A stretch of 11,516 nucleotides of DNA, taken from NCBI GenBank assembly GCA_049966395.1, contig JBMFUT010000023.1:1-11516 (forward strand). Direction: 5' to 3'. Made by a program: the position numbers. The DNA is from Candidatus Micrarchaeia archaeon. GTDB lineage: Archaea; Micrarchaeota; Micrarchaeia; Micrarchaeales; CABMGC01. The first letter of the stretch is position 1. Every line of letters begins with the position of its first letter. Below, in pieces: positions 1-3,000 of the stretch.

Positions 1-3000
1 GGCAACAACGGACAGATAAATGGCGTTAACTTTGTCAGCAACTGGTGGAATGGCTACACGCCTCCATAATCGCAATGCAAAAAGGCAACAAGGCGCAAGT
101 TCTTCTGCGGACATAATGCATGAAGTGCACTCATTGCTAAAACGAACTGAAGTCTATTATCCCGGCCATCAGTTCCTTCGCCCTTGCCAGCGAAAGGGGT
201 CGCATGCCTTTCTTTTTAGCATAGGCGCACTGATATCTTATGTATGCCTCGTTTATCTTGGTGTTTGGATTTATCTCCTTGCAGCGCTGTATGTAGTTGT
301 ATATTATCGAGAATGCCTCCTCCTCGCTGAGCCCCCTTATGTTTGTCAGGTATGGAGCCAGCACAAGGTTTACTACCCTGTGCCTGAAGTCAGGTATGGG
401 AGTGTTTAGGAGTTGTTCTATCCAGCCGTAGCGCTTGCCCTGCGTTGCTGGGATCTGCGCAACCTCCGCCCTTGGCTGTTTCACGCTCTTCGCATACGCC
501 GAGACTTCCTTAGGTATTTCGGAGCTTTTTATCGGAAGCCCCGAGAGCACTTTCTTCTTTGCGGCCTCCGCAAGAAGCTGCACTACGGCGTATTTGTTCA
601 AGTATACGAAGCCGTCGCGCATGTTCTGGTGGATGAGGGCGAATTCCTCCCTGTCGTTGGGCACAACCTTAAGATAGTCGTAAAATGCAATCTTGAAATC
701 CTTTCCTTCGATAGAGGCGGGGCACCCGAGCTCTTTTGAGATTCTTAGTATGTTTTCTTCAGACTCTTCTACCAGGGCGCCAAGGATCCTCTTTGCCTCG
801 CCCTCTGCAAAAAGCTTGATTGGATGCGCTCCCATGACGCTTACCAGGAGCCTTGCAAAGGCGTAGCTTACCAGATAAGTCTTCTTCAAATCAGAATAGC
901 CTGTCTTGAGAAACTCCGCCTTTCCTGCAAAGTCTTCTTCAAGCCTGATCTTCGCTGCGTCGAGGTATGACTTCTCAACCTTAGTTATGTTTAGAGCAGA
1001 AACTATGCTTTTTGCCTCTTCCGAAAAAGGATACTTGTAAGCGAAATCCAAATCGTCAGGCATAATAGGAAATCTCAACCAAAAATATTAACCTTTTGCT
1101 GCGGTCAGTCCCAAAGCTCTTTGAGGTCCTTGCCGCTGAAAAGTATTTCCTTCAGCTCCTTAGCCATTGCAGCGTCGTGCCTTCTTATCCATTCCAAAAG
1201 CAGAGTGGCATGCTCTTTTTCGTCATCGCGGTTGTGCGCCAGCACCGCGGCCAATGACCTGTCCTTAGTTGCGCTGACTCTCTCGTCATACCACATCATT
1301 GCCTGAAGCTCTTCGACAAGCGACTGCCTTGCCCTGTTCAGGTCCTTTGTTTTCTCGTCTACATTTTCCTCGTACGCCAAAATCACCATCAATATTCATT
1401 GCATGAAAGCTTCAGCTTTCTATGTAGGGCGCCAAATAGTATGTCACCGAGGCATCGCCAATGTTGTAGCTGACCTTCAATGGCTCGTTTGTCTTCATTG
1501 ATATGCTCATAGAGCTACCCATAGGGCACGCCTTAACTATGTTCTCCAGGTACTCGAGATTGAAAGTGACATCTGCGCCCTTGTCGGCCTTAAGCTTCTT
1601 TACTATGCTTCCGTCTACACCGTGCAACTCTTCCAGTTCTCCAGAATCACCGTGGGCGTTTATGACAAGTTCGTCCTTAGAAGCCTTGAATGCTACATAC
1701 GAAGATATCAGACTTGCGTCCTTTATTATTTCCTTTAGCGGATCCCCGGCAACCTCTGCGGTCGCGTCGAATTCCACGTTCGGTTCCTTCTCCACGTTTT
1801 TCCTTATGTCGATCATTGGCAGCTTGTATCTCCTCCTGCTGTTCTCGCCTATAAACTCCAACAGCAGCTTGCCATTTGTATCTTTCATCACAAGAGACTC
1901 GTTGTCCCTTGTCCTTGAAAGGACCTTGCTGAGGTTCTCCAAGTTGAGGCCGACGCTTGTGTTCTTCTCGACGTCGTACTTCTCGAAGGCCTTGCTCGGT
2001 ATGAAGAATGAAACCATGCTTATGCTAGAAGGATCCATTGCGCGGAGGCTTATTCCTTCGCTCGAAATTGTGAAAGACCCTTCGTCTACAAGGTTCACTA
2101 TTGATTCTACACAGTCCCTCCAGTATTTCGCATTAGAAATCTTGGCCTCAAACATTTTATAACCCCCTTTCTATTAAACTACAAATGCAAAATATTTATA
2201 TCATTCTATTGCAAGAAAACGAGAGCCAGCATGCTGCAAACTAAACTTTCATCAAAAGATAACACGATAAAGGTAAAATCTTGCAAGCCTATTTGCATTG
2301 CTCCATAGAGATGAGTCTTTCAAACGCTTTCTTTTATTGCCTGATGCCATGACAATCGATGCATTTGAGATGCAGCCCGGCTGTGCTACTTTCTTGAGAA
2401 CAGGAAGAAGAATATTATTGCTATTAATATTAGTACTATGGCGAGCGCTTCTGCGACAACTACCATTCCTTGAGAGCTGCCGAAGATTATTGGCACTGGG
2501 CCTATCATCACGACGCCGCCAAAGCCAGTTGTGACGTTTTTGCCTGCCTGGGGCCTTGCTGCGTTTGCAAAAGAGTAGATTATCAGTGCTGCGAAGCCTA
2601 TTGCGACAAGGACCATTCCTCCTACAAGCAGATAGTCGTACATGATACAATTACATAAACAATATATAAATAATTGGCGCAATCTGAATTGGATTTATTG
2701 ATAGGGATAGTATATTCTACTGCCGACATTGCCTCTACAAATATCGCAAAGGCGATTATAGAAAGGCACGGATTCTCTGAGCATGGGGAGATTTGGGAGC
2801 TAGGCAATATACATGTAATCAGGACAGAATCTAGGCTAGTTGAAGCTGATTTCCTCGACGAGTTGCACGCCGAAGTGCTGGTAATGCTGAGCAAGCATAG
2901 CAGTGCAGCTGGAATCGGCGCGTTCACAACGCACCCTACAGGAAACTGGGGGAAAGAAGCTAAGCTTGGAGGTAAACCTAAGAGACTTTCCGTAGCGGCG

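Follow-up and report, generated by a model that had tools for sequence, protein, structure and literature searches.

A PriL N-terminal domain joined to a PriX-type module as the probable sole primase large subunit of a Micrarchaeales archaeon

The window analysed here is the whole stretch of 11,516 nucleotides on contig C23 of a Micrarchaeales genome, which comprises 693,655 bases in 34 contigs and is 89% complete. Three adjoining genes on its minus strand, together with the parts of the first, are listed below with the evidence that assigns each of them.

137..1063, minus strand: priL-X gene, 308 codons, stop codon at 137-139 (open reading frame and translation, family matches, best PDB match)
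473..1063, minus strand: PriS-docking N-terminal domain of PriL, from residue 1 to about 197 (PriL models, Foldseek, hhalign)
440..472, minus strand: flexible linker, residues about 198-208 (low pLDDT and alignment to the junction of the engineered Chimera)
140..439, minus strand: helical module of PriX type that has no four-cysteine site, residues 209-308 (PF18689, NF033412, fold match)
377..391, minus strand: predicted motif for the triphosphate of the initiating NTP, D225-F-R227-H228-R229, at the N-terminal end of helix 228-242 (alignment to PriX)
1105..1392, minus strand: EncFtn-like gene between the PCNA gene and priL-X, context only (Pfam EncFtn-like, E 3.5e-31)
1412..2155, minus strand: PCNA gene, upstream of priL-X on the same strand (Pfam PCNA_N and PCNA_C)

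Family models divide the PriL-X protein in two. Its C-terminal part was matched by the Pfam PriX family (PF18689; residues 212-297, E 7.1e-14, bit score 52.3, cut-off 25) and by the NCBIfam PriX family (NF033412; residues 211-305, E 1.7e-32, 111.8 bits against a cut-off of 50). The NCBIfam PriL equivalogs covered only residues 9-197, corresponding to model positions 7-210, with scores of 19.8-79.5 bits against cut-offs of 339-479 (the best, 79.5 bits, against 439); the equivalog NF002588 matched residues 9-196 with an E value of 2.8e-22. PF04104, the family of canonical large subunits, reached only residues 122-188 (model positions 2-61 of 266, E 3.3e-4, under the cut-off). No AEP family of Pfam or NCBIfam matched the chain, whose N-terminal domain is that of PriL. 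The protein has three cysteines (114, 261 and 279) and three histidines (80, 145 and 228), and only C261 and C279 lie within the PriX-type module, so that the four ligand cysteines of a 4Fe-4S cluster are absent from the C-terminal domain. The initial annotation had described this gene as a PriL N-terminal domain fused to PriX and devoid of the Fe-S domain, a description borne out by PriX models that score above their cut-offs and by PriL models that stop at residue 197.

Structure prediction gave the same division. The AlphaFold model of the complete protein had a pLDDT of 93.1, and the linker was its sole low-confidence stretch (mean pLDDT of 52 in block 201-210, versus 87-98 around it). Using Foldseek, the N-terminal domain was superposed on that of S. 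solfataricus PriL (1zt2_B) with a TM score (target) of 0.74 and an rmsd of 3.1 Å over 210 columns, and the C-terminal domain on PriX (4wyh) with a TM score of 0.78 and an rmsd of 1.7 Å. When the C-terminal domain was modelled alone (pLDDT 87.9), it matched PriX chain 5of3_C with a Z score of 13.8 and an rmsd of 2.7 Å over 98 aligned residues, the next chain having a Z score of 6.3. By its matches to 5of3_C and 4wyh, the modelled domain has the six-helix PriX fold. A wide fold search with the same domain also returned photolyases (Z 4.3-4.7) and RepB' (Z 4.3); eukaryotic PriL C-terminal domains were not among the best 50 matches listed, which does not show that the folds differ.

The best sequence match of PriL-X in the PDB was not a natural protein but the engineered Sulfolobus Chimera PriL(1-211)-PriX(42-154) (PDB 5OFN; Holzer et al., 2017), which is fully active in primer synthesis in vitro. 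Chain 5ofn_B was matched with an E value of 2.6e-24 in a single unbroken alignment of residues 30-297 against 34-308, and the length of the linker differs by one residue from that of the junction. Both proteins have the same domain order and are without the Fe-S domain; they differ in that the Chimera was engineered whereas PriL-X is natural, in sequence (identity of about 27%), and in two extra conserved cysteines of PriL-X. The earlier proposal that this gene is the natural counterpart of the Chimera is upheld by the top rank of 5ofn_B, by the collinear match and by the conservation of the D/R/R residues. In PriX, D70, R72 and R74 bind AMPCPP and are required for primer initiation, and the mutants D70A, R72A and R74A are defective in primer synthesis (Holzer et al., 2017). 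The stretch D70-S-R72-K73-R74 of PriX was aligned to D225-F-R227-H228-R229 of PriL-X, which we therefore predict, by analogy, to be the triphosphate-binding motif for the initiating NTP. Among 65 relatives, D225, H228 and R229 are kept in all and R227 in 64. K73 of PriX is replaced by a histidine (H228), Y103 is aligned to I258, with an invariant tyrosine (Y257) one residue before, and D140 falls outside the aligned stretch.

No second PriL or PriX was found in the genome: across all 34 contigs, PF04104 and PF18689 matched only within the priL-X gene, as the initial annotation had stated in calling it the only primase large-subunit gene. The catalytic subunit PriS is encoded on contig C1. An incomplete assembly of 34 contigs could in principle hide a true Fe-S PriL, leaving PriL-X as an accessory or repair paralogue, but we find this hardly credible in view of the wider order. 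PriX was detected in 214 of 248 Micrarchaeales genomes, including 85 of the 86 with a completeness of 90% or more, whereas PF04104 matches that extend into the Fe-S part (to about model position 205) occurred in just one of the 248 (G118). The other 27 PF04104 matches in Micrarchaeales cover no more than model positions 1 to about 106; where both are listed, they lie inside the PriX frame. The pattern recurs in eight Micrarchaeales genomes assembled as single contigs (G002, G033, G124, G128, G159, G201, G223 and G228), all of which have PriX and no PF04104 match at E <= 1e-3. The neighbourhood argues likewise against a paralogue: priL-X lies beside the PCNA gene, as does canonical priL in G251, where PCNA stands upstream of PriL, followed by PriS. 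PCNA also precedes PriL-X in 4 of 31 loci of relatives (L007, L074, L081 and L102), and an EncFtn-like gene adjoins it in none of the 31.

Outside the order, PriX was absent from all 172 genomes of other Micrarchaeota families, 138 of which have PF04104 including the Fe-S part. These families retain the pattern PPC...PSC...C..C in PriL, and one family, f10, has lost all four ligand cysteines in place. The counts for Micrarchaeales, for the other families and for the mini-gene families described below include two unpublished genomes (G025 and G240), and the conclusions are the same without them. The PriL-X architecture is thus standard in Micrarchaeales and absent from the genomes of other families of the phylum (214/248 versus 0/172); the figures of the earlier survey were slightly different but the same in substance. 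The initial annotation had presented it as the initiation module of a DPANN order. Its standing within that order holds, but a scope confined to DPANN does not, since tblastn retrieved full-length PriL-X from Nitrososphaeria records as well, aligned end to end at 23-28% identity. In a class sample of 141 Nitrososphaeria genomes, 13 had PriX and no PF04104 (the sample includes one unpublished genome, G554, and leads to the same conclusions without it). From 80 Nitrososphaeria loci, 40 were kept after a sequence-pattern and length filter, the pattern having given no open reading frame in 18. No published description of a natural PriL-PriX fusion was found in the literature on PriX, PriL and Micrarchaeota primases, a search whose coverage took in few subscription journals.

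Profile comparisons were used to ask how the two domains are related to those of other primases. Using hhalign, the N-terminal domain of Micrarchaeales PriL-X scored 293 (E 7.7e-47) against that of canonical Micrarchaeota PriL and 133.5 against Nitrososphaeria PriL-X. The C-terminal domain scored highest with AEP-fused PriX (234, E 8e-45), followed by short PriX proteins (208), Nitrososphaeria PriL-X (147) and, far behind, the canonical C-terminal domain of its own phylum (35.5, probability 81%, 50 columns). When 175 PriX-type domains were placed in a tree, a single clade (support 0.907) comprised the 55 from Micrarchaeales; its sister group (support 0.976) consists of seven AEP-fused proteins and one short protein, C261 being common to all. 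The gene of one sister protein, P0176, of the AEP/PriX group, lies on a viral contig of 75 kb from IMG/VR. The tree was built with FastTree from 102 columns and rooted at the midpoint, and the proteins sampled were the best matches to the Micrarchaeales module itself. Ten of the 65 relatives, missed by the domain-splitting pattern, were omitted from the tree and the hhalign sets, and 10 of 104 second-tier proteins were dropped for having fewer than 75 model positions covered. Proteins whose N-terminal extension exceeded 200 aa were classed as AEP-fused; an AEP domain was recognized by Pfam in 16 of 60 PriX-type proteins scanned and motif I (hhhDhD) in 34 of 48 long proteins, and PriX-type modules are common on AEP primase-like proteins. 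A candidate for Sulfolobus PriX in this set, P0224, was rejected on its E value of 1.5e-8 to 4wyh, and Sulfolobales PriX itself consequently has no place in the tree. Among 50,697 phage and 72,556 plasmid records, tblastn with one AEP-PriX protein (P0161) matched none.

Judged by these sequence comparisons, PriL-X is a mosaic, with an N-terminal domain native to the phylum and a C-terminal domain that nests among PriX modules fused to AEP catalytic domains, and domain replacement therefore fits better than decay in place and is the origin that we favour. The opposite reading, according to which an orthologous PriL simply lost its cysteines and resembles PriX because the latter would be a PriL C-terminal domain without cysteines, has several points to commend it. 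PriL-X and canonical Micrarchaeota PriL are collinear and similar in length (308 aa versus 307-361 aa); by eye, W214 and L292 stand at the sites of the first two ligand cysteines, and a pattern R-Y-Q...K..P.S is common to both C-terminal domains, which hhalign also relates at the probability given above. Family f10 provides a precedent within the phylum. We nevertheless consider in-place loss improbable: the module scores far higher against AEP-fused PriX than against its own phylum, whose N-terminal domain is nevertheless a high-scoring match to that of PriL-X, it nests inside the AEP-fused proteins with which it has C261 in common, and f10 illustrates the outcome of loss in place, a protein that escapes the PriX model and can still be aligned over 90 columns to the canonical domain.

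A single fusion followed by transfer of the whole gene between Micrarchaeales and Nitrososphaeria or other TACK archaea would account for the architecture, the motif D-x-R-H-R...LAPYL and the end-to-end alignment that both groups have in common. This history appears highly improbable, given that the Micrarchaeales N-terminal domain is far nearer to PriL of its own phylum than to that of Nitrososphaeria, that the Nitrososphaeria N-terminal domain scores about the same with Micrarchaeales PriL-X (133.5) as with canonical PriL of Micrarchaeota (127.6), and that the C-terminal domains of the two groups fall in different regions of the PriX tree, beside different AEP-fused proteins. In some Nitrososphaeria, too, PriL-X appears by the same sequence comparisons to be the only large subunit, captured separately.

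Domain replacement leaves the two cysteines of the module to be considered. C261 is invariant among the 65 relatives and C279 nearly so (59 of 65, with valine in the other six), and with H228 they could form a metal site. Besides, 27 of 31 Micrarchaeota-type loci have, downstream of PriL-X and on its strand, a mini-gene of 45-62 codons whose product has seven invariant cysteines and, in most cases, a histidine at position 30. This genome encodes one at C14:136-276, in matching orientation and 135 bases from the contig start, whereas the 140 bases that follow the priL-X stop codon hold only unconvincing open reading frames of 26-38 aa. No exact overlap was found between contig ends, those of C23 and C14 included. 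Metagenome contigs matched the window in pieces of 76-495 bases, and positions 19-65 of the window are common to short contigs whose sequences differ to either side of it.

From these observations it might be supposed that the enzyme consists of PriS, PriL-X and the mini-protein, with a metal centre or third subunit supplied by the latter or by C261, C279 and H228. We regard this as doubtful, although, with a mini-gene so often adjacent, the two-subunit enzyme of the initial annotation is itself only a candidate. Members of the mini-protein family also occur with canonical PriL (12 of 23 genomes of family f4, 6 of 7 of f7 and 2 of 2 of f8), where the mini-gene lies far from priL (807 kb versus 827 kb in G296, for instance), and no such open reading frame was present in the 40 Nitrososphaeria PriL-X loci. 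Neighbourhood by itself is a weak sign of binding, and the valine at position 279 in six relatives speaks against a metal site. Pfam likenesses of the mini-protein to zf-HIT and B-box, both sub-threshold, point to zinc rather than Fe-S. Complex prediction for PriL-X with the mini-protein gave a score of 0.00 in two runs without controls, a value that carries no weight either way.

We conclude that PriL-X is probably the only large subunit of the replicative primase, in which the PriL N-terminal domain of the phylum is combined with a PriX-type module in place of the Fe-S domain. Since the S. solfataricus Chimera is active in vitro and S. islandicus lives on PriLn-Xc alone, we infer that PriL-X binds PriS and NTP, has priming activity and carries no bound metal. 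In the S. islandicus strain CHI-deltaX, priL was swapped for PriLn-Xc and priX was deleted (NAR 2025, PMC12019639); growth equals that of the parent strain, and the PriLn-Xc strain is damage-sensitive and incapable of microhomology annealing. By analogy, the PriL N-terminal domain of PriL-X would dock on the PriS encoded on contig C1, and the flexible linker of about 12 residues would let the PriX-type module swing to the PriS active site. The D-x-R-H-R motif would hold the triphosphate of the initiating nucleotide, its aspartate acting via a divalent metal, and the first dinucleotide would form beside the PriS elongation site. An iron-sulfur cluster would play no part in priming by PriS/PriL-X.

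This enzyme can be set against several known primases. With canonical PriL/Pri2 (PF04104), PriL-X has in common the N-terminal PriS-docking domain, the overall length, the place beside PCNA and the predicted role in initiation, but it is without the four cysteines that ligate the 4Fe-4S cluster there, and PF04104 matches only the end of its N-terminal domain. Its C-terminal module has the fold of PriX in the Sulfolobales PriSLX complex (PDB 4WYH, 5OF3) and scores above the cut-offs of the PriX family models. Sulfolobales PriX, however, is a separate protein of 154 aa, with an N-terminal tail bound to a PriL that still has its Fe-S domain, while in PriL-X the module is covalently fused, and both the tail and the PriL Fe-S domain are absent. 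Mobile-element AEP primases and primase-polymerases with a fused helper (PriCT-1/2 and pRN1, Kazlauskas et al., 2018, PMC5862659; PolpTN2, PMC3973330) offer another comparison. Among the relatives of the PriL-X module, the nearest are PriX domains that follow an AEP catalytic domain in the same chain, whereas in PriL-X the module sits on a PriL N-terminal domain and the catalytic PriS is separate. Primase remodelling in DPANN archaea is known as well from the monomeric PriS-PriL of DPANN cluster II, represented by N. equitans NEQ395, for which an origin from mobile elements has been proposed (PMC10250227; bioRxiv 10.64898/2026.06.17.729505); unlike PriL-X, NEQ395 is one chain that keeps the 4Fe-4S site. 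The same literature describes Micrarchaeota as retaining a classical two-subunit primase.

There has been a long dispute over a catalytic or redox role for the primase 4Fe-4S cluster. The cluster was argued to be unnecessary for primer synthesis by Holzer et al. (2017), and its contribution is called unresolved in the NEQ395 paper. The case against a required cluster has so far consisted of one Sulfolobus chimera active in vitro and one engineered strain. Natural lineages with a cluster-free large subunit, namely nearly all Micrarchaeales, some Nitrososphaeria and one further Micrarchaeota family, offer independent material tested by evolution. The purified enzyme is predicted to be iron-free, its initiation to depend on D225, R227 and R229, and end joining that depends on the PriL C-terminal domain may be absent. 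PriX has been described as specific to Sulfolobales or to crenarchaea in three papers (PMC9258230, PMC12680538 and PMC12770985), a description that the present distribution corrects. The gene also presents a core cellular replication protein that has acquired a type of domain known elsewhere from the primases of mobile elements.

A wider scenario, for and against which we find the case evenly balanced, holds that the PriL Fe-S domain was given up at least three times: by capture of a PriX module in Micrarchaeales, by one or more captures in Nitrososphaeria and by cysteine loss in one Micrarchaeota family. Mobile-element primase-polymerases would have been the source of the captures, the stand-alone PriX of Sulfolobales would be the unfused form of such a capture, and the cluster would be dispensable for chromosome replication in nature.

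Positions 1-1100 of the window were also compared with public data. No RNA data matched among the data sets searched, and two contig sets from one hot-spring metagenome sample contained 0.21-0.25 of the sampled words.

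The priL-X gene encodes a protein of 308 aa (P0001) and lies in the window next to two further genes on the same strand:

137-1063, minus strand: priL-X gene (P0001; ORF and translation)
1105-1392, minus strand: EncFtn-like (encapsulated-ferritin-like) gene, between PCNA and priL-X
1412-2155, minus strand: PCNA gene, upstream of priL-X

A PriX domain was detected in the C-terminal part of P0001 both by Pfam (PF18689, residues 212-297, E 7.1e-14, over the cut-off) and by NCBIfam (NF033412, residues 211-305, E 1.7e-32). The PriL equivalog models of NCBIfam matched residues 9-197 only, with scores far under their cut-offs, and PF04104 (DNA_primase_lrg) gave only a sub-threshold match of residues 122-188 to model positions 2-61 of 266, which by its location is the tail of the N-domain and not the Fe-S part. 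Among PDB sequences the top match was 5ofn_B (E 2.6e-24), the fusion chain of the engineered Sulfolobus solfataricus Chimera, which aligned in one continuous stretch (30-297 against 34-308) with a junction differing in length by one residue; the PriL N-domain 1zt2_B and PriX 4wyh_A came next. Cysteines are present at positions 114, 261 and 279. These results bear out the initial annotation, which had described P0001 as a PriL N-domain joined to PriX, devoid of the Fe-S part and with only three cysteines, and as the natural counterpart of the Chimera.

An AlphaFold2 model of P0001, built from 65 relatives, reached a mean pLDDT of 93.1, its sole weak stretch being the linker (block 201-210, mean pLDDT 52). 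Foldseek matched the modelled N-domain to S. solfataricus PriL (TM 0.74); for the C-domain it returned PriX 4wyh, with a TM of 0.78 and an rmsd of 1.7 Å. When the C-domain was modelled alone (pLDDT 87.9), a fold search of 48,161 chains returned PriX 5of3_C (Z 13.8, rmsd 2.7 Å, 98 residues), followed by a runner-up with Z 6.3. Holzer et al. (2017) showed that PriX D70 (via Mn2+) and 72-RKR-74 hold the triphosphate of the initiating nucleotide, that primer initiation is impaired by each of the substitutions D70A, R72A and R74A, and that the Chimera PriL(1-211)-PriX(42-154) is fully active. From the alignment with 5ofn_B, the predicted equivalents in P0001 are D225 and R227-H228-R229, where D225, H228 and R229 are invariant in the 65 relatives and R227 is kept in 64. 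C261 is likewise invariant and C279 is found in 59 of 65. Each relative has between one and four cysteines, mostly two, which is not enough to build a four-cysteine cluster site inside one chain.

Neither PF04104 nor PF18689 matched any gene but priL-X in the genome that contains the window (89% complete), as expected if this gene encodes the only large subunit; PriS is encoded on contig C1. Across the order Micrarchaeales, PriX was found in 214 of 248 genomes, in 85 of the 86 with a completeness of 90% or more, and mostly in frames of 308-370 aa. PF04104 matched at E <= 1e-3 in 28 of the 248; 27 of these matches are limited to the stretch from position 1 to about 106 of the model and, wherever a PriX hit is listed alongside, fall inside the PriX frame. 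Eight single-contig genomes of the order have PriX and no PF04104 match. By family, PriX occurs in 52/53 (f1) and 71/75 (f3) genomes of the phylum sample and in 0/172 of the other Micrarchaeota families, where PF04104 is present in 138/172 with the pattern PPC...PSC...C..C. The proposal that PriL-X is the standard of the order therefore holds. The only full PF04104 match within it (positions 18-205) belongs to G118, which lacks PriX and is the one genome in family f2:

G118, contig C5 (locus L027), 1486-2409, minus strand: canonical four-cysteine PriL, 307 aa

G118 marks either the border of the domain replacement within the order or a misplaced genome.

A PriL can also lose its cysteines in place. 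Families f10, f11, f15, f17, f18, f20, f22, f26 and f31, which neither PF04104 nor the PriX model matches, encode a divergent PriL, detected in 32 of 301 Micrarchaeota genomes:

L030, 1465-2391: divergent PriL ORF
L029, 1105-2136: divergent PriL ORF
L112-L135 (G257, G258 and others): loci with further divergent PriL ORFs

Its C-domain can be aligned to the canonical one over 90 columns, and the four cysteines are retained in the majority of the proteins. In all four f10 proteins of the alignment they are gone (C to A; C to V, M or L; the C..C tail missing), which is an independent loss in place. The PriX case differs, as revealed by profile comparisons (hhalign) among 55 Micrarchaeales PriL-X, 40 Nitrososphaeria PriL-X, 10 canonical Micrarchaeota PriL, 43 proteins whose PriX module follows a long N-terminal extension and 37 short PriX proteins.

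Profile comparison scores of the two Micrarchaeales PriL-X domains (hhalign)
N-domain, canonical Micrarchaeota PriL: 293 (E 7.7e-47)
N-domain, Nitrososphaeria PriL-X: 133.5
C-domain, long (AEP-fused) PriX proteins: 234 (E 7.7e-45)
C-domain, short PriX proteins: 208
C-domain, Nitrososphaeria PriL-X: 147
C-domain, canonical C-domain of own phylum: 35.5 (E 1.2e-5, 50 columns)

Because the N-domain scores highest against its own phylum (293) and the C-domain against PriX proteins (234, compared with 35.5), the gene is a mosaic of an N-domain native to the phylum and a C-domain of the PriX family. The long PriX proteins are mostly AEP primase-like: DNA_primase_S or LigD_Prim-Pol was detected by Pfam in 16 of the 60 scanned, and motif I (hhhDhD) in 34 of 48 longer than 300 aa. 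A FastTree phylogeny of 175 PriX-type domains, computed on 102 columns and rooted at the midpoint, united the 55 Micrarchaeales modules in one clade (support 0.907), whose sister (0.976) comprised one short protein and seven of the AEP-fused type. Both groups share the invariant C261, and some members Y-I-[RK]-Y-Q. For one sister-group protein, P0176, the coding sequence lies on an IMG/VR contig of 75 kb:

L136, 3980-4999, plus strand: AEP-PriX protein identical to P0176

Taken together, the mosaic profiles, the tree position and the location of P0176 favour the view that a mobile-element-type module replaced the PriL Fe-S domain. The architecture in the fusion reading of the initial annotation stands, and the origin differs from the one supposed. 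Around the AEP-PriX gene of L136 lie co-directional small ORFans, a methyltransferase and an RNase HII gene.

PriL-X is spread more widely than the initial annotation supposed and is not confined to one DPANN order. With the C-domain as query, a phmmer search of 1.84 billion representatives yielded 583 proteins at E <= 1e-3, and 4 of 104 second-tier proteins also carried a PriL N-domain; scanning species genomes with the alignment of these four gave 80 loci (L032-L111). Full-length PriL-X records are titled Nitrososphaerales, Thaumarchaeota, Conexivisphaerales, Geothermarchaeota and Gagatemarchaeum, besides Micrarchaeota. The Nitrososphaeria motif reads D-G-R-H-R-x-x-W (in longer form DGRHR..W..LAPYL), whereas that of Micrarchaeota is D-[VFG]-R-H-R-x-V-N. 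PF04104 was absent at E <= 0.01 from all five Nitrososphaeria PriL-X genomes searched (G420-G424), two of which are chromosomes of 1.8 and 2.0 Mb. Among 141 genomes of the class, PriX was present in 19 and PF04104 in 116 (PriX only, 13; both, 6; neither, 12). In the midpoint-rooted tree, 39 of 40 Nitrososphaeria modules grouped in a clade of their own (0.952), located elsewhere and adjoining other AEP-fused proteins, which argues for a separate capture of the module. Micrarchaeota-type PriL-X also occurs in records labelled 'Acidiferrales bacterium' or 'Marsarchaeota archaeon' (loci L046 and L058; proteins P0044, P0054, P0074 and P0081), labels that probably do not match the organism.

In papers up to 2025, PriX is called specific to Sulfolobales, Sulfolobus or crenarchaea (PMC9258230, PMC12680538, PMC12770985), and a 2026 preprint states that DPANN cluster I keeps classical PriS/PriL (bioRxiv 10.64898/2026.06.17.729505). 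PriCT-1/2, PriX and the PriL Fe-S domain are described as structurally related by Kazlauskas et al. (2018, PMC5862659). Natural PriL-X proteins already bear the name 'DNA primase noncatalytic subunit PriX' in the NCBI pipeline, so the domain is recognised by annotation. No paper describing a natural PriL-PriX fusion was found in the literature searched, which covered only a minority of subscription journals; the parts are known, and the arrangement has so far been described only as an engineered construct. In a 2025 study (NAR, PMC12019639), an S. islandicus strain that lacks priX and carries PriLn-Xc in place of priL grew like its parent; its sensitivity to MMS and NQO was higher, and PriS/PriLn-Xc was incapable of promoting microhomology annealing. 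By analogy, this supports a functional PriL-X and predicts that natural PriL-X lineages would lack microhomology-annealing repair activity. The reading of P0001 as an Fe-S-free PriL-PriX protein, as amended, is supported, its activity and metal content being predictions.

No EncFtn-like gene lies beside PriL-X in the 31 relatives' loci, and in genome G251 the gene order is PCNA-PriL-PriS. An ORF of 45-62 aa with seven invariant cysteines, and mostly histidine at position 30, follows PriL-X in the same orientation at 27 of the 31 Micrarchaeota-type loci (L006-L013 and 19 further) after a gap of 0 to about 360 bases; L046 and L058 have this neighbour too. It is absent from the 136 bases after the priL-X stop codon in the window, and the genome carries it elsewhere:

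C14, 136-276, plus strand: 7-Cys mini-gene (locus L031; E 9e-24), 135 bases from the contig start, in matching orientation

Its product showed only sub-threshold likeness to zf-HIT and B-box (Pfam). The family occurs in the PriL-X families (f1, 47/52; f3, 63/73) and in others (f4, 12/23; f7, 6/7; f8, 2/2; f9, 2/61), thus also with canonical PriL, and was not found beside Nitrososphaeria PriL-X, so a role of the mini-protein with the primase is only possible, and the two-subunit enzyme of the initial annotation is likewise only a possibility.

Elsewhere in the window, Pfam at E <= 0.001 matched none of the ORFs at 3431-5482 (plus strand, 683 aa), 8526-9302 (plus, 258 aa) and 10812-11312 (minus, 166 aa), nor two ORFs at 2252-3056 (minus) that overlap each other and measure 132 and 144 aa. 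Short metagenome contigs match window positions 19-65 only and diverge on both sides, which suggests a repeat or junction and may be the reason why the contig ends there.
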